Virus record (IMG/VR): IMGVR_UViG_3300032320_000694
Location: 1-31,677 of that record
Source: a virus
Lineage: Duplodnaviria > Caudoviricetes
Direction: 5' to 3' (one strand)
Length of the DNA: 31,677 bases
In this document: positions 14,604 through 28,683 of the stretch, piece after piece
Numbering within the stretch: position 1 is the first letter of the stretch
How the letters are laid out: every line of letters begins with the position of its first letter
Program-made: the position numbers and the translations under genes
The notes under the pieces: generated by a model
Database searches by the model: none
Told to the model about the DNA's origin: nothing
Seen by the model: the letters and a program-made list of their open reading frames with translations, nothing else

Positions 14604-16094
14604 TTAATAATAAGATTTCTTACGTTTAAATTCTATTGGCTCATCTTCTTCATCTGAAGGCAGCTGAATAAACCCGCCTCTTCTGAATCTTAAAAGTGCT
14701 TGCGTAGTCGAGTCTACCAAGTCGTCATGGTCTGAATTTGGAAATGCAGCTAATTCCTCTACTACTTCTTCAGCCCATCTTTTAGGTGGACACCACACTT
14801 TGCCAGAAGCAAATAAATCAGATACAGAATTTACACGAGCAATTTTATCATTACCTCGTGTTGGAGTAAACTCCTGTACCGGTATTCCCATTCTTCTTAA
14901 TTCAAATATTAATGGCGCTCCAGAAGCTTTTGCTTCTACAATAAAGGCATCTGGTTCATATTCTTTATACATATCATATGCACGTTGTTTTAATTCTGGA
15001 AACTCTAGCCGTTCTTTTAAAGCATCTAAAAGAATTATATTTGCGTCATTTTGATCTTCATTTAAATAAAATACCCCCCAAGTTGTACACGCAGAATAGT
15101 CAGATCTTTCGTTCTTTGTAAAAGCCGTATCCCAACTTTGTATAATAAACTCACACTTTGGCGGTCTTTCTTGTTCCCACATCTTCCACCATTCTCTTTT
15201 TACCAAAGCACCCTGTTCGCTGGTTGGGTCCTGTTGATACTGTGCCTGCCATTTAGATAATGGTAATTCAATTCTTAATTTGTTTAATTCTTCATAACTC
15301 CAGAACTCTGGCCATAAAGGTGTCTCATTACGCTTAATTGCCGGTAAACTAATAATCTCCCAGTCATCTCCGTCTCTGTCAATCATTGACTGACAAATCT
15401 TGCCTGTCAAGTCTCTCTTAGACCATCTAGTCATTACGATGACTATTGACCCTCCAGGCTGAAGACGCTGTCTCGGTCCAGAGGTATACCATTCATAGAC
15501 TTTATCAAATACGCTAGGATCTCCAGAAGCCAAAGCTGCTTCTTGTTCCGAGTGCGGATCGTCAATAATAAGCAAGTCAGCGCCCTTACCCGTTACTGTA
15601 CCGCCAACCCCAATCGCAAAGTATTCGCCGTTTTCATTAGTACTCCAACGCCCCGCTGCCTTAGAGTCTGACCTTAGAGCTACATTAGGAAATACCTTAG
15701 AGTAGGTTTCATTGCCTACTAAGTTCCTTACCTTACGACCAAAACCTACTGCAAGTTCTGCCGTATTAGAACACTGAATAATTTTCTTATTTGGAAACTT
15801 GCCTAAAAACCACGCCGGTAACAGATAACTAGCAAACTCCGACTTCGTATGTCTAGGAGGCATATTAATAATCAACCGCTTTGTCTTACCAGAGGCTATC
15901 TCTTCAAATTTTGTTGCCATGAGTGCATGATGTGCGCCATGAATAAAACCCGGCCACATGGTCTGCACAAATGTCATAAAGTCTATCTGCCCAGTTTCAC
16001 GTATCAAAGAATCTTGATAAGCCAGAGCCAAAGGCATTAATTGCTCTCTCTCCTGCTCCGGCAACATCTTTAATATATCTAATATATTATCCAT
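14604..16094 (-). CDS. terL: Terminase large subunit
   Basis: Walker A-like MPPRHTKS, Walker B LLIIDDP, VMTRW, YQQDP; nuclease motifs SWDTA and HDDLVDS. Confidence 0.95.
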   Translation of the reverse strand: MDNILDILKMLPEQEREQLMPLALAYQDSLIRETGQIDFMTFVQTMWPGFIHGAHHALMATKFEEIASGKTKRLIINMPPRHTKSEFASYLLPAWFLGKFPNKKIIQCSNTAELAVGFGRKVRNLVGNETYSKVFPNVALRSDSKAAGRWSTNENGEYFAIGVGGTVTGKGADLLIIDDPHSEQEAALASGDPSVFDKVYEWYTSGPRQRLQPGGSIVIVMTRWSKRDLTGKICQSMIDRDGDDWEIISLPAIKRNETPLWPEFWSYEELNKLRIELPLSKWQAQYQQDPTSEQGALVKREWWKMWEQERPPKCEFIIQSWDTAFTKNERSDYSACTTWGVFYLNEDQNDANIILLDALKERLEFPELKQRAYDMYKEYEPDAFIVEAKASGAPLIFELRRMGIPVQEFTPTRGNDKIARVNSVSDLFASGKVWCPPKRWAEEVVEELAAFPNSDHDDLVDSTTQALLRFRRGGFIQLPSDEEDEPIEFKRKKSYY

Positions 16095-16314
16095 TGATAT
16101 TTCTTATATTTAAGTAGGACGGTCTAATACTTCTAGTGTTCCTCGTATTACCTTTACAATACCCTTGTTTAATTAATGCCCGCATTTTACGAGCAACATT
16201 CCCGCGACCCTTCTCGCCAGTCATGTACATAATATCATCAATGGTAGGACCAAAGCCGTAACTCTCCCACCACTTCTCAATAATATGAAAAACCTCCTTC
16301 TGCGCAGGTGTCAT
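16087..16314 (-). CDS. LexA-type winged-helix DNA-binding protein (no peptidase domain)
   Basis: MTPAQKEV...I..W....GFGPTIDDI......G.V......L...GY.....R.IR resembles the LexA N-terminal domain; ATGA overlap fixes the start at 16314. Confidence 0.65.
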   Translation of the reverse strand: MTPAQKEVFHIIEKWWESYGFGPTIDDIMYMTGEKGRGNVARKMRALIKQGYCKGNTRNTRSIRPSYLNIRNING

Positions 16315-16640
16315 AGAAACTCTTTCCACAATCTCGCCAGACGTAATACATTTTCCTTATTCTCCCGAAACTCAGGATTATTCTTGTTCCGCTTGGCGTG
16401 AGCAATAAAAGCCTCATCTGTCATATCTAACTCAACCTCCGCCTCAGTCTCTAGCCAAACATACGCCCCGCAGCTCAACGGCTTATCAGGACTATACACT
16501 ACCTTACTCTCCCCAAGTATCCTAACACTATGAGCATACCTATTCTCCTTATATGTCTTTACCGTAATAACAGGATCATTTAATCCTTCTTTTTTGTTTT
16601 TTCTTATAACGTGTTGATTAATATGGATAATTTTTTTCAT
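16311..16640 (-). CDS. Conserved phage hypothetical protein
   Basis: IHINQHVIR.N, PVITVKTYK.N.Y and PDKPLSCGA.VW.ET motifs. Confidence 0.7.
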   Translation of the reverse strand: MKKIIHINQHVIRKNKKEGLNDPVITVKTYKENRYAHSVRILGESKVVYSPDKPLSCGAYVWLETEAEVELDMTDEAFIAHAKRNKNNPEFRENKENVLRLARLWKEFL

Positions 16641-23341: not shown

Positions 23342-23505
23342 AGCGATATGATGTTACATTCGTGATGCAAAGAAAGGTCTATATTACTGTAGATGTTCCC
23401 AATGGTGAGGATATTGTTCAGTGGGCGTGGGATAATATTACAGTCAATAATGGCGAAGACATGATTGATGTAGACTACTATGAGGTTGATCCTAATGAAT
23501 ATTAA
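23338..23505 (+). CDS. Small acidic beta protein, not in ORF track (MKRYDVTFVM...)
   Basis: 55 aa; GAGGAGG RBS; ATGA overlap. Confidence 0.65.
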   Translation: MKRYDVTFVMQRKVYITVDVPNGEDIVQWAWDNITVNNGEDMIDVDYYEVDPNEY

Positions 23506-23776
23506 GAACTGTGGTGGTAAAGTTCCAGTATTTGTGGGGGGCGAAAGCCCCTACAAACTGGTTGATTTTCCTTCAAAAGAGGTGTTTAATGAATGTTTTA
23601 AACGAAGCAAACCTGAAGACCAAGATAAATACTGGACAATGCTTCATATGCGTCTTGAAGGCAATTCTTTGAGTCAGGTTGCTTCTAAATACAGTTTGAC
23701 AAGAGAAAGGATTCGTCAGATTGAGGCTAAGTTTTTAAGGAGATTAGCCATTTCTTTAAACTCTGCGAAGCCTTGA
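23495..23776 (+). CDS. Stand-alone sigma-70 region-4 HTH protein
   Basis: SLSQVASKYSLTRERIRQIEAKFLRRL closely matches RpoD region 4.2 (TRERIRQIEAKALRKL). Confidence 0.8.
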   Translation: MNIKNCGGKVPVFVGGESPYKLVDFPSKEVFNECFKRSKPEDQDKYWTMLHMRLEGNSLSQVASKYSLTRERIRQIEAKFLRRLAISLNSAKP

Positions 23777-24545
23777 CCTTGCCTAATCTAAGATGATAGT
23801 CGTTAAAATCTTCACCAGTTGTGTCGGAAAGCCAATACGGTTTGCCTGTATCTTTGGCAGATCGTTCTCCGATACCATTGGTGTCGTTATCAGCGATGAC
23901 GAAGCCATGCCTAATGTTCCTTGCTATGAACTTCATGTTGCTTGCACTAAAGCAAATGTGGATTTGATAAGGAATATTCAAATGATTCATCACTTCCCTG
24001 ATGGAGAGTCCAGTGGCGAATCCTTCGCAAAATATGGGAATGCCCTTTGTGCCGATAACAAAGGATGCTCCCTTCGTGGTTTGACCATTGAGGAACTTTT
24101 TACTCCCCTCTTGGTCGATGAGTTGACATCCTACTATTACTCCATCAATACTCATGGGAATCGCTAAAAGTTTGACGAAGCCCTTGACGAAGCAATTTGC
24201 TAATTCATTTTCAAACCCTTTTGCAGCCAAATAAGGATGCGTTTCTAAACTACACTGGCTCATTATCCATGATGCCTTTGACGAAGCCTTTTTTGCATTC
24301 TGCTGTCGATTATCCATTGATTTAGTGATTTGCTGTCGGATTTGTTTCTCATTGACTCCATTTGCAAACCATGTGACTGGCTTTTCCATTGTTGACCAGT
24401 TTTGCACCCATCCTACATCCCCTAAGATTTTATATCTGCCATTTCTCTTCTGTGGATGATCTTCTGTTGGCGTAGCAATCCATTTGTCGTATTCCAGGCT
24501 ATCAACAATCAAGCCATGATCTCTTGCGAAGTTTACAAAGTCCAT
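23727..24545 (-). CDS. Toprim-domain DNA primase
   Basis: HPYL..KG, L.IP, CEGFATG, IADND and G.DFND Toprim motifs; coupled to the helicase. Confidence 0.85.
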   Translation of the reverse strand: MDFVNFARDHGLIVDSLEYDKWIATPTEDHPQKRNGRYKILGDVGWVQNWSTMEKPVTWFANGVNEKQIRQQITKSMDNRQQNAKKASSKASWIMSQCSLETHPYLAAKGFENELANCFVKGFVKLLAIPMSIDGVIVGCQLIDQEGSKKFLNGQTTKGASFVIGTKGIPIFCEGFATGLSIREVMNHLNIPYQIHICFSASNMKFIARNIRHGFVIADNDTNGIGERSAKDTGKPYWLSDTTGEDFNDYHLRLGKVKASQSLKKWLISLKT

Positions 24546-26029
24546 TATTTAATCCCCATTTTTTGATTTCTTTTGACCCACGCTATGGTTCTATGCTTTA
24601 CCCAGTTTTGGGTATCCAGTGAGGGTATTCTTGGTTCTTCTGACAATCCTCTGGGCCATACTCCAAACTTTGCTCGATATTGATTACTAGCCCAGTTGAT
24701 GTTGTATTTTCTGTCTTTTGCCATGTAAATTAACTCAGAATAAAAGTTCTGTTTGACCTCTTTTGATACATTTTCTTTTATTCCTAACTCAGTCATTTCT
24801 CCTGCCACTGCCTCTATTTGCTTAATCGGTCTGACGTAGCCACAATAAACGCAGGTATTGCTATTTTTTTCCCATAAAGCCGAGCATTTAGGGCATTTTG
24901 ATTCTTTCTTTTCTTTTTCAGGTGGCTCTTTTTTGGCTTTTTCAGTCTTTTCATCCAGTTTACTCACGCCATTGGCATAAATATCATCCCAGTCTTCCCT
25001 AAATCGCAGATAATTGCCTGAATGATCAAGCCAAACACCAAATTCTTTTCCTTCTGAAGCTCGCATTACCCTACCCATTTGTTGAATGTGGGATGACAAT
25101 GACTTAGAAAATGGTCTAGCAGAGATGCCAATCATGACATCAGGCACATCAAACCCTCTAGTCAATACGTCAGTTGCAATTAAGCCATGAATTTTTGTAT
25201 CAGGCTTAGAAAAGTCCTCAATCATTTCACGCTTAAATTCAGAATCATCAAGGTAAGAAATACTAACAAAGTTATAACCTTTTCTGGCAAACTGTTCCAC
25301 CAAGTCCTGACCATGCTTAACTCCTGCACAAAATACAATCGTTTTTCTTGGTCTGCCAAAGATTTCAAGTGTTTTCTTTTCCCATTCAACCACAATATCG
25401 CCAGTAATCTTCATGCCTCGTTCCGTTACTTCGTCAGGACTCCATTCTCCCGCTAGTAACTTAGCCCCTGTCATGTCGATTTCTTTGGCAATATAGATTC
25501 GTAAAGGACTTAGCCAACCCTTTTCAACCAAGTCCTCTGTCGTAGCCGCACAAACCACATGGTCATAAATTTTTCCTAAACCTTTGGTAAATGGTGTTGC
25601 AGTTAAGCCGATGACTTTGATTTGAGGATTGTTTTTGATGATGGAAGTAATTTGACTTCGCGCGATATGGCACTCATCAACAATCAATAAATCCATCTCA
25701 GGAAACTTTTTACGTTTTTCTAAGGTTTGTGATGAACATATCTGAATACGTTTTAAAGCACTTTGACGGTAATGGTTCGCCTGTATTACGCCATGATCTA
25801 TGGAATACTTGTCCAAGCGATTACTGGTTTGATCTATCAACACAATACGGTCTAGAATCATGCCAGCACGATTAAATTTATCTGCCGTAGCCTTCATTAA
25901 GTAAATGGCTACCTCAGTCTTGCCAAAGCCAGTTGGAGCATACAACAGTTGCGTTCTATGCCCATCTTTAAAACCCTGACGAAGCATCTCCACAACACCT
26001 GTTTGGTGTTCTCGTAAAGATAATTCCAT
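24545..26029 (-). CDS. Superfamily II DExH helicase with C-terminal Zn ribbon
   Basis: APTGFGKT, DECH, LTATP, GFDVPD, QQMGRVMR, CPKC...CVYC. Confidence 0.9.
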   Translation of the reverse strand: MELSLREHQTGVVEMLRQGFKDGHRTQLLYAPTGFGKTEVAIYLMKATADKFNRAGMILDRIVLIDQTSNRLDKYSIDHGVIQANHYRQSALKRIQICSSQTLEKRKKFPEMDLLIVDECHIARSQITSIIKNNPQIKVIGLTATPFTKGLGKIYDHVVCAATTEDLVEKGWLSPLRIYIAKEIDMTGAKLLAGEWSPDEVTERGMKITGDIVVEWEKKTLEIFGRPRKTIVFCAGVKHGQDLVEQFARKGYNFVSISYLDDSEFKREMIEDFSKPDTKIHGLIATDVLTRGFDVPDVMIGISARPFSKSLSSHIQQMGRVMRASEGKEFGVWLDHSGNYLRFREDWDDIYANGVSKLDEKTEKAKKEPPEKEKKESKCPKCSALWEKNSNTCVYCGYVRPIKQIEAVAGEMTELGIKENVSKEVKQNFYSELIYMAKDRKYNINWASNQYRAKFGVWPRGLSEEPRIPSLDTQNWVKHRTIAWVKRNQKMGIK

Positions 26030-26030
26030 G

Positions 26031-26297
26031 TTATTTCTTCGCTTTTAATTGACGAATGAGATCTGCATTGCGATTCTGATACATATCTCTACTGTCTTTT
26101 AAAGATTCATTTTCTTTCTCAAGAATACGAATAGTTGATTTTAATTCTTCTACAACGTCAAGAATGTAATCTTGCTCAAAGTCTGTTGCATCCCATTTCT
26201 TTGTTGCTACGATAGTTTTATATTTATCTAACTCTTGATCTAAGTAAACAATAGTGTCAGTTAATTCGTTGATGTTGCTTTGTGTTATATATTCCAT
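26031..26297 (-). CDS. Coiled-coil protein, first gene of the helicase-primase operon
   Basis: 88 aa; LK.SRD.YQ..NA.L; CTGCTAGGAG RBS. Confidence 0.75.
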   Translation of the reverse strand: MEYITQSNINELTDTIVYLDQELDKYKTIVATKKWDATDFEQDYILDVVEELKSTIRILEKENESLKDSRDMYQNRNADLIRQLKAKK

Positions 26298-26323
26298 GTA
26301 TTCTCCTAGCAGTTGGAAATTTT

Positions 26324-26351
26324 AGTATATCAAATTTAAATGTTATTGCAA
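26324..26351 (-). promoter_or_regulatory. Sigma-70 promoter of the replication operon
   Basis: TTGCAA-16 bp-TATACT with TGn extended -10. Confidence 0.65.
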
Positions 26352-26354
26352 TAG

Positions 26355-26857
26355 GTATTCCTGAGGGAGCGCAACGAAATTGAAAGTGAGGTTTCCCCCA
26401 ACCCCACAGAGCAGGGCTGAAGAAAAACTCATCTTGATATTCCCTCAGTCGCTTACTTCATATCAAGTTAATGAACCATTGGTAGTCTAGTTCACATACC
26501 AGTGCTTTCTACTCATTACTACGAGTTCGTTTAAGTGTCACTGGATGATCCCTATTTCTCCCAATCGTTCTCAGACAGGGTAAAGATCACGTTTCCACAC
26601 CTTGAGCTTAAACAGTCTTCTTTGCTCACTATCACGCCAATTTAGGAAGAACGTACCGTATGTCTTTTTGCCGTTCTACTTAACTTCAAGGGCAACTTTC
26701 TCACATACTCAGACCGATAGACCTAAACCATCGTTCTAGGTAATAAGCATCACAAATCGCATAAATTTATACACGTTAAATTAATATGTATAAAAAATAC
26801 TTAATTTGTTGCATGAAATTGTTTCAGTTCATGTAGAAGCTTATGACCTAGCAGAAC
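26355..26857 (-). ncRNA. Candidate large (~500 nt) structured non-coding RNA
   Basis: No ORF of 60 aa or more; own promoter; about ten nested helices, many G-U pairs valid only on the minus strand; 8-bp pseudoknot near the 3' end. Confidence 0.7.
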
Positions 26858-26860
26858 TAT

Positions 26861-26889
26861 AGATTACACCAAGTAAATTTATTTTGCAA
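26861..26889 (-). promoter_or_regulatory. Sigma-70 promoter of the large ncRNA
   Basis: TTGCAA-17 bp-TAATCT, immediately after the sRNA terminator. Confidence 0.6.
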
Positions 26890-26890
26890 G

Positions 26891-26927
26891 AAAAAAAAGA
26901 ACCCTAGAGTGTGAAATCTAGGGTTCT
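26891..26927 (-). terminator. Rho-independent terminator of the small RNA
   Basis: Perfect 11-bp stem AGAACCCTAGA/TCTAGGGTTCT, 8-nt loop, U8 run on the minus strand. Confidence 0.85.
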
Positions 26928-27024
26928 GGGGGGGTGGGATCAAGGTGGATCCTACTGTCTATGAAGAATAACCCTGCTAGGAGCGTCTACACGTTGTGAT
27001 GACAGTAGTAGATGGGGTCTACAT
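26891..27024 (-). ncRNA. Candidate trans-acting anti-RBS small RNA (~135 nt)
   Basis: Promoter plus intrinsic terminator with no ORF (ATG followed at once by TAG); stems GTAGA/TCTAC, CTACTGTC/GACAGTAG and GGATC/GATCC; central loop complementary to several phage RBSs. Confidence 0.7.
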
Positions 27025-27029
27025 GAATA

Positions 27030-27059
27030 AATATACCACATATATTATAGATCAGTCAA
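27030..27059 (-). promoter_or_regulatory. Sigma-70 promoter of the small RNA
   Basis: TTGACT-18 bp-TATATT with TGn extended -10. Confidence 0.65.
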
Positions 27060-27068
27060 CTATTAATA

Positions 27069-27353
27069 CTATATATTGATAAAATTATTCTCAAATAACC
27101 AACCTATAGTGTTTCTGTGGGCATTTTCCCACATTTCTAGACGTTCTTCCCTTGATAAACGGCTTCCTTGATCTATTTCAATATGACATTTAAAGCATAA
27201 AGATGCGATACGGTAATCATGGGCTTTAATTCCTCTACCTTTTCCATCCCGTAATTGGTTTGAATGCGCTGCCACGACTGTTCCATCCTGAATCCCGCAG
27301 ATCTGACACGGGGACTGTCTCACTATTTCCAGCAATTTCTTGTTTCTGTACAT
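27069..27353 (-). CDS. YbcO/DUF1364-like Zn-binding HNH-type nuclease
   Basis: PCQ.CG...TVVAAH.N...GKG.GIKA.D....LC..CH; start at ATG 27353. Confidence 0.7.
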   Translation of the reverse strand: MYRNKKLLEIVRQSPCQICGIQDGTVVAAHSNQLRDGKGRGIKAHDYRIASLCFKCHIEIDQGSRLSREERLEMWENAHRNTIGWLFENNFINI

Positions 27354-27459
27354 AATAAACACCGTCAATTAATTTAATTAAAAAACCTAATTCTTCGTAA
27401 CTCATTTGTAAATCTTTTGTGTTATGATTCATGTGATTACACCCCATAAAGGTAATAAA

Positions 27460-28683
27460 ATGCCCACATCAAGTTTAACCAATGAGCAATTGCAGGCCGT
27501 TGTTGATGCGTTTAATAAGACTGGATCTAAAATTGAATCAGCCAATCTTCTCAAGTTAAATCATAGCACATATAACCATCGTTTTAGAAGTGCCATGAAA
27601 AAGGGGTTCAAAGCAAACAAACAACCCGAAGAAAATTTAATTGACAAATTAAAAGACGCAAACGACAGAATAAAAGAATTAGAAGCGTATTCAAGTAAGC
27701 ATGTGGAAGATCAGTTGACTGCTGATTATGTAAAGAAAAAAATTATTAAACTGAAAGATGGAACTGTTAAAGTGCCATCTTGGATAGTAAAACACAAAGA
27801 TAAAAAGAAATTTACTGGAGTCCCTACGCTCATGGCTTCCGACTGGCACTGGGGAGAGATTGTTGATCCATCGCAGATAAATGGCGTAAACGAATACAAC
27901 TTAGAAATTGCCAGAAGACGAGCTAGAACTATGGTGGAAAAGACCATAGAACTACTTCAGAACTATATTGCCAATCCCAGTTATCCTGGGATTATTTTTG
28001 TCTTAGGCGGGGATATGGTTAGTGGTGATATTCACGATGAACTAAGCGCCACAAATGAAAAAGAAATCATGCCGATTGTTTTAGACTTGTTCGGAGTCTT
28101 ATGTTGGTGTATAGAAACTCTTGCAGAAGAATTTGGTAATGTTTATATCCCTTGTGTATCAGGAAATCACGGAAGAAACACGCATAAAATCCGCAATAAA
28201 GGCAGAAACTATACTTCTTTTGACTGGCTTCTATATCAATTCTTAGCAAAAAGATTTGAAAATGATGTTCGGATTACATTTAACATACCGGATGGTCCAG
28301 ATGCGTATTATTGTGTCTACGGACATCGTTATCTTTTAACACACGGAGATCAAATGCGAGGTGGTGACGGTGTGATAGGCGCTCTCGGCCCAATCATTCG
28401 TGGAGACCATCGTAAACGCTCTAGAAACGCTCAGATTGATATGAGTTACGACACAATGCTACTAGGTCACTGGCATCAATTAATTCAACTGGAACGTCTT
28501 ATAGTCAATGGTAGTCTTAAAGGATATGATGAATACGCATATTCTAATAACTTTGGCTTCGAACCACCAAGACAAGCAATGTGGATCACGCACCCACAAC
28601 ATGGCATTACGTTTTCTATTCCAGTCTATGTGGAAAAACAAACTAAAAAATTTGAATCTAGCAGTTGGATTTCTTGGAAATGA
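27460..28683 (+). CDS. Calcineurin-like metallophosphoesterase with N-terminal HTH/coiled coil
   Basis: SDWH, GGDMV.G.IH, GNHG, THGD and GHWH motifs; AAGGT RBS supports ATG 27460. Confidence 0.85.
   Translation: MPTSSLTNEQLQAVVDAFNKTGSKIESANLLKLNHSTYNHRFRSAMKKGFKANKQPEENLIDKLKDANDRIKELEAYSSKHVEDQLTADYVKKKIIKLKDGTVKVPSWIVKHKDKKKFTGVPTLMASDWHWGEIVDPSQINGVNEYNLEIARRRARTMVEKTIELLQNYIANPSYPGIIFVLGGDMVSGDIHDELSATNEKEIMPIVLDLFGVLCWCIETLAEEFGNVYIPCVSGNHGRNTHKIRNKGRNYTSFDWLLYQFLAKRFENDVRITFNIPDGPDAYYCVYGHRYLLTHGDQMRGGDGVIGALGPIIRGDHRKRSRNAQIDMSYDTMLLGHWHQLIQLERLIVNGSLKGYDEYAYSNNFGFEPPRQAMWITHPQHGITFSIPVYVEKQTKKFESSSWISWK

Follow-up and report, generated by a model that had tools for sequence, protein, structure and literature searches.

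A structured RNA family outside Rfam ahead of phage replication genes, probably a variant of RNA-driven replication initiation

A stretch of about 500 nt ahead of the helicase-primase operon of a tailed phage encodes, on the minus strand, a non-coding RNA that belongs to a real family outside Rfam, and this large RNA is probably a variant of RNA-driven replication initiation. It lies in a window of 31,677 nucleotides (the whole stretch of DNA analysed, IMG/VR record IMGVR_UViG_3300032320_000694), which represents about half of the phage genome. The first-pass annotation had treated positions 26355-26889 as a single 500-nt unit; the evidence presented here supports instead two parts, an antisense-target domain and an exchangeable core. 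Our preferred reading, held with somewhat better than even confidence, is that this two-part element is an RNA-dependent replication origin with ColE1-like antisense control. Of the two guesses made in the annotation, the second (a replication-linked RNA) is favoured by the comparative evidence, and the first (a new large ncRNA or ribozyme) is supported as regards an ncRNA outside Rfam, but no sign of a ribozyme was found.

The window contains head-region genes (terminase, portal, capsid and an SU10-type adaptor), and the stretch is flanked by an HNH-like gene (27069-27368) and by a minus-strand operon coding for an 88-aa protein (26031..26297), a superfamily-2 DNA helicase of 494 aa (24545..26029; phrog_16, ResIII, Helicase_C) and a Toprim primase of 272 aa (23727..24545; phrog_2249 and phrog_510, with Toprim_3 under its cut-off). 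This operon has a separate predicted promoter (26351-26324, within 26305..26351, minus strand). The 88-aa protein corresponds by eye to the C-terminal part of a 284-aa protein of the relatives, and this long form gives a ParB-like match; the reduction of the ParB-like gene to its C-terminal part was seen in the window and in loci L006, L036 and L057, and parallels the truncated initiators described below. On the other side, a 419-aa exonuclease-family gene and an SprT-like gene (27424-28683, plus strand) are oriented against their neighbours, and a similar inverted gene pair precedes the helicase operon in L057. The sole regulators seen in the window were a small LexA-type DNA-binding protein (16087-16329, minus) and a sigma-70 region 4 protein (23480-23776, plus). 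The Rfam family name of the RNA present in relatives, together with the host of Acidovorax phage AP1, point to Betaproteobacteria as hosts; the helicase had three matches in GTDB genomes, all of them in genome bins and none informative for the host.

No frame in the stretch stays open for more than 34 codons on the minus strand or 51 codons on the plus strand, in agreement with its earlier description as free of ORFs, and every helix listed at that time was found in its place. The minus strand of positions 26355-26860 folded with -144.9 kcal/mol (z -3.96) and none of 100 shuffled sequences did as well, whereas the plus strand reached a z of -1.59, with 7 of 100 shuffles as good. When the core was folded alone (381 nt, 60 shuffles in each case), z was -2.6 for minus-strand RNA, 0.0 for plus-strand RNA, and -0.45 and 0.1 with DNA energies. 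This indicates that the core is significant solely as minus-strand RNA, the form in which it had been annotated. Rfam gave no match at gathering score and six chance-level matches at E up to 10, none within the core. The models for GOLLD, ROOL, ARRPOF, PAGEV, group I and group II introns and ribozymes had no match in the window, and the RNA is, as previously noted, not assignable to GOLLD or ROOL. Motifs resembling group I P7 and group II D5, picked out by eye with what we take to be the consensus of these elements, were discarded because they stood in the wrong order and were without Rfam support.

The predicted promoter of the large RNA is the motif TTGCAA-17-TAATCT (26861..26889, minus strand; -35 at 26889-26884 and -10 at 26866-26861). 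As annotated, the motif is present, but it fails a consensus promoter scan; it is kept ahead of cores of four types (A, B, C and D, see below) in 50 loci. Behind it, the variable 5' domain (26736..26854, minus) consists of a closing helix, which includes an 8-nt tag (26854-26847), and two inner hairpins. The conserved core, named type D, spans 375 nt (26361..26735, minus), with eleven nested helices and one candidate pseudoknot. In its 3' hairpin (26388..26430, minus) the G-rich arm (26407-26392) is invariant and the partner strand varies; this arm has two alternative possible partners, 26393-26386, which is terminator-like, and 26368-26361.

Homologues of type D came to light in 2 of the 80 loci picked by their helicase and, with exact patterns, in 9 of 12 and 11 of 11 loci. 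Pairing is kept in 98.5% of the 731 cells of a six-row alignment, and both sides have changed in 15 of the 123 pairs, a number reached by none of 500 shuffles. Twelve of these two-sided changes affect the 5' domain (12 of its 31 pairs) and three the core. Among the 92 core pairs, 76 are invariant, 12 show one-sided changes, which depend on G-U pairs, three are two-sided and one has a broken row. Covariation support for the core is modest, since its structure was derived from the very rows compared and these contain essentially about two core haplotypes. The pseudoknot formerly proposed between 26441-26448 and 26361-26368 did not hold: 58% of its cells pair, four of its eight pairs are broken in all five homologues with none compensated, and its central pair is also broken in three contig haplotypes spanning both arms. 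A better candidate partner for the loop may be 26717-26712, which could form with 26450-26445 six pairs that are held in all rows, with one one-sided change. On these sequence grounds, a conserved, structured, minus-strand non-coding RNA family is supported.

A small RNA, absent from the annotation, is predicted immediately upstream, as a separate gene on the same strand as the large RNA. Its predicted ends (26890..27024, minus) delimit about 130 nt with a fold z of -5.3; the predicted promoter (27030..27059, minus) has 10 of 12 consensus matches, with a similar spaced pair in relatives, and an intrinsic terminator (stem 26927-26898, minus) is predicted from the sequence. One arm of the small RNA (26992-26974) is complementary, imperfectly and over about 20 nt, to positions 26854-26831 at the start of the large RNA. 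This relation was assessed in 20 non-redundant arm-target pairs (out of 34 distinct), with the shared tag excluded. The cognate duplex ranked best in 12 of the 20 and none of 20000 permutations was as good, the mean energy being -15.4 kcal/mol for cognate duplexes versus -8.2 kcal/mol; three pairs ranked 8th or worse. This shows that the sequences of the small-RNA arm and of the 5' domain of the large RNA vary together; the binding itself is predicted, and the 5' domain is the likely target of the small RNA.

The tag is found in other places as well. Exact or with one mismatch, it stands directly before five start codons of the window (17636, 18079, 21534 and 22523 on the plus strand and 26312 on the minus strand), the last of these copies (26312-26305) covering the ribosome-binding site of the replication operon, and the complete type D phage G001 has five exact tag sites directly before start codons. 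With one mismatch allowed, 20 copies were counted in the whole window and 15 were expected. Since this number is not above chance, the evidence lies in the placement before start codons. The small RNA may act on these copies too, as a repressor of several early genes.

The position occupied by the type D core is a slot that in relatives holds one of three other cores: A (the Rfam family Betaproteobacteria-1, RF02932), B or C. Among 80 loci picked by their helicase, 71 had a core (B in 39, A in 29, D in two and C in one), and in every one of these the core and the helicase shared a strand. Six of the nine core-less loci have less than 1 kb upstream, and L025, L036 and L057 lack a core with at least 2 kb upstream. 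The pattern of promoter plus tag retrieved 75 viral loci; a core is present in each of the 50 that also show the small-RNA motif (A 33, B 6, D 6, C 5) and in none of the 25 that do not. Each of four near-complete relatives carries one core, A or B and never both, and G001 carries D only.

These cores are unrelated as far as can be detected, since neither HMMs nor covariance models revealed any likeness of D to A, B or C. The best score of the core B model in the window was 2.8 bits, versus 184-212 bits in phages with B, and short words shared by B and D had suggested a kinship for which HMM and covariance model gave no support. Neither the RF02932 model (cut-off 49.4 bits; as positive control, it matched two of the four near-complete relatives) nor our own HMM matched D. 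Type A is about 210 nt long; the Rfam model spans 120 nt, and conservation continues for about 90 nt on its 3' side (e.g. L031:1560-1775). Core B measures about 240 nt and was seen as 35 distinct sequences across 80 loci; it covaries strongly, in 24 of 29 predicted pairs, and has probable pseudoknots (L066:3986-4230, L003:1752-1975). Core C (about 260 nt) was found in six loci (among them L006:1485-1745, L168 and L180). Seven loci with cores C, D and B variants gave no Rfam match at gathering score. Upstream of core B in L004, L032, L045, L058, L061 and L066, a different 5' module replaces the tag hairpin; it is a long imperfect hairpin that we take, by eye, to be c4-like.

Type D was seen solely in the helicase-primase slot (43 loci, many of them the same contig again), and no truncated initiator lay next to it in any locus. 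Annotated phages and plasmids (for the latter, blastn at E 5 against 72,556 plasmids) gave no real match to D; plasmids had no match to cores A or B either, and B had none in annotated phages. Four exact patterns and an HMM run over 606 loci, used to find distant homologues of D, returned the same close family, L084, L088, L093 and L489 being chance matches. Contigs from sequencing runs yielded D variants only, and no RNA holder was present among the runs listed. In distant phages with the same helicase (PS-1, YA3, Shpa, Vibrio 1.233 and MW202426), no core of types A-D was present in the stretches examined. Long gene-poor gaps lie beside the helicase-primase pair in the Pseudomonas phages PS-1 and YA3 and in MW202426 (L209:2870-3500, L208:2765-3510 and L210:7270-8340), and these gaps are candidates for other origin RNAs.

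The gene neighbours of core A were analysed in 120 loci picked with the type A pattern alone (of an estimated 390 or so stretches), 119 of which were confirmed. The core lies by a helicase/primase pair in 31 loci, always on the same strand and in 19 of them after the primase; before a protein of about 124 aa that consists solely of an initiator C-terminal domain in 30, mostly after a Cro-like gene; and before a T7-type primase-helicase in two. When the 80 loci with long flanks were considered, 57 had a same-strand replication set (26 a helicase/primase on either side, 29 the initiator domain and two the T7-type protein); the remainder are mostly short contigs, and L221 and L254, with full flanks, fit no class. 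In the cultured Acidovorax phage AP1, type A comes right after the primase.

The stand-alone initiator domain corresponds to positions 179-261 of phrog_270, its full-length homologues carry an N-terminal HTH, and no solved structure was found for it. In 80 loci picked by this domain (of 567 found), the initiator was truncated in every case, with 40 or fewer open codons ahead of the domain, and core A (36 loci) or B (36, ten of them partial) lay upstream in 72. Of the eight core-less loci, four have less than 2.5 kb upstream, three have other structured leaders as judged by eye, and one, L356, has a DUF1376 gene upstream of the stand-alone domain. Structured leaders upstream of the initiator domain were noted in L386, L394, L376, L388 and L360, some of them ending like D in a pyrimidine arm and a G-run hairpin; these are possibly more core types. 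As a control, 80 of 521 loci were picked by their Cro-like gene, which left 76 after removal of four already in the set (both queries, domain and cro, were taken from A-carrying phages). A core was present in 68 of the 76, and the domain was truncated in all 56 loci that had it in range; two loci end at cro. Six of the core-less loci contain a DUF1376 initiator gene, which is complete and has short internal repeats in five and is cut by the contig end in one. Since the phages with a full initiator all fall on a single branch of the cro tree, together with three core A rows, the contrast is worth one or two evolutionary events.

Thus, cores A and B are associated with truncated initiators as well as with three sets of replication genes; their occurrence after the primase, before a T7-like primase-helicase and before truncated initiators (72 of 80 loci) is reported here as new. 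Lambda O binds iterons inside its own gene. The contrast between a core with a truncated domain and no core with a full initiator therefore suggests that, in lambda-like phages, the slot RNAs occupy the place that normally belongs to the initiator's DNA-binding half and repeats. No initiator N-terminus was found in the 120 type A loci, the 80 helicase loci, G001 or the window. In G001, no initiator, polymerase or integrase was found in the 43 of 62 ORFs (at least 90 aa) that were scanned, many of which had no family; the other 19 comprise the helicase operon, the HNH gene and the head-region genes.

The first alternative to be weighed, which we regard as unlikely, is that the large RNA is a cis-acting leader controlling transcription, either an attenuator or an antiterminator on the model of HK022 put, gated by the small RNA as in the immunity of P4 (CI) or P1 (c4). 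The RNA does lie behind a promoter and ahead of an operon, its invariant G-rich arm has three possible partners, one of which forms a terminator-like stem with a U-rich tail, and the small RNA covaries with the 5' domain. However, type A comes after the primase gene in the 19 loci mentioned above and in phage AP1, the helicase operon has its own predicted promoter, and a terminator switch leaves unexplained both the pairing of cores with truncated initiators and their absence beside full-length ones. Less probable still is an ornate RNA that acts in trans as a free molecule, or a ribozyme, of the GOLLD/ROOL kind or self-processing, whose site would reflect only early expression: size, dense helices, strong conservation and the lack of an ORF between the large RNA and the next promoter of the window would suit it, but no Rfam ribozyme, intron, GOLLD or ROOL match appeared even at E 10, the window has no tRNA, and a single core per genome is found in fixed orientation beside replication genes. 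An origin acting as folded ssDNA (a priming or helicase-loading signal exposed by transcription) would have the same replication gene links, and PMC5737381 mentions an action as ssDNA as a possibility for such plasmid motifs, but it is very improbable here, given that with DNA energies the fold of the core does not beat that of shuffled sequences, that 12 one-sided changes need G-U pairs and that the counterpart of the 5' domain is an arm of an RNA.

In the preferred reading, an RNA-dependent origin, transcription from 26889-26861 would make the large RNA, and the 375-nt core, in the role of an origin-binding initiator, would melt the DNA or bring in replication proteins. The nascent RNA could stay on its template near the invariant G-rich 3' arm, as an R-loop like that of ColE1 RNA II, or the core might instead bind a loading protein; the phage helicase and primase would then enter and begin synthesis. 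Invasion by the small RNA would begin at the tag, whose 5' end is unpaired, and would open the 5' domain and block the origin, and the same molecule, through the shared tag, would cover early ribosome-binding sites and repress early genes. Diverging arm-target pairs would give rise to immunity groups. Core D would do what A and B do; its proposed origin role is carried over by the equivalence of slot position, since D has no likeness to A, B or C and never lies beside a truncated initiator. Further points speak against an origin: plasmids gave no match to a core, the initiator could be the ParB-like protein or some ORF that was not recognised as one, and a primase-carrying phage has no obvious need of an RNA primer. 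The RNA strand is G-skewed in 133 of 133 A, 62 of 67 B and 11 of 11 D cores, with G runs near the 3' end, and the 60 nt behind the cores are AT-rich in 126 of 133 A, 58 of 67 B and 8 of 11 D; these features fit an R-loop origin, and also G-U pairing and promoters, and hence carry little weight. Placement of the origin by GC skew in the window was dropped because the skew tracks the coding strand.

Small antisense RNAs encoded beside their targets are known in phages: c4 of P1/P7 and CI of P4, cloverleaf RNAs processed by RNase P, pair with short boxes in early transcripts, and the P4 CI RNA lies ahead of a primase-helicase. The system described here resembles them in having tag boxes where the large RNA begins and immediately ahead of five start codons, and differs in the absence of an Rfam C4 match, in the small RNA's own promoter and terminator and in a main target that heads a large conserved RNA rather than an ORF. 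Betaproteobacteria-1 takes up this slot in relatives, where it likewise follows the promoter and the 5' domain; unlike this RNA of about 210 nt, D measures 375 nt and is matched by neither the Rfam model nor an HMM.

The closest comparison is ColE1, which, according to PMC5043065, is initiator-free and uses an RNA of about 550 nt that forms a lasting hybrid with the template, a process blocked by an antisense RNA of about 110 nt directed against the 5' end of that transcript. As in this account of RNA II and RNA I, we predict a non-coding transcript of about 500 nt with its own promoter, no origin-binding initiator was found among the ORFs scanned, and an antisense RNA of 110-130 nt matches the 5' end (by covariation and predicted binding). 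In ColE1-type origins the persistent hybrid is cut by RNase H and extended by Pol I. Unlike ColE1, this is a phage and not a plasmid, with its own helicase and primase, and D has no sequence match to plasmids; and in contrast to the fully complementary, opposite-strand antisense RNA of ColE1, the small RNA here comes from a separate upstream gene on the same strand, pairs imperfectly over about 20 nt and has further putative targets. ARRPOF is located in a region that sustains replication without Rep, and a tie to origins is likewise described for PAGEV and GEBRO (PMC5737381, PMC12990946). These plasmid motifs (223-349 nt) share with D a structured nature and a tie to replication regions, but D is longer, has an antisense-target domain and no Rfam match. 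GOLLD and ROOL, often near tRNAs, are likewise large and helix-rich, GOLLD also having a variable 5' and a conserved 3' part (PMC12286853); in contrast to them, D has no tRNA neighbours in the window (about half of the genome), a shorter core, a fixed link with replication genes and no Rfam match. In the literature other than subscription papers and the supplement of PMC5737381, neither an origin role for Betaproteobacteria-1 nor any paper on the D RNA was found.

A broader proposal can be put forward tentatively, as one that we judge plausible and rather less than evenly probable. In many small tailed phages, the origin-binding half of a lambda-O-type initiator and its iterons would be replaced by a folded RNA, with at least four unrelated, interchangeable folds (D, Betaproteobacteria-1 and two unlisted ones) marking the origin for any loader, helicase or primase, and in the present phage a diversifying antisense RNA would set immunity and replication together. 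To our knowledge, a function is lacking for most large bacterial and phage RNA motifs. Since the cultured Acidovorax phage AP1 has type A after its primase, a bench test is within reach. If true, the origin reading would provide a testable job for the Rfam orphan Betaproteobacteria-1 and for three unlisted RNA families, would show that RNA-driven initiation, known from ColE1-type plasmids, also occurs in common phages, and would explain how replication starts in phages that have half an initiator or none.
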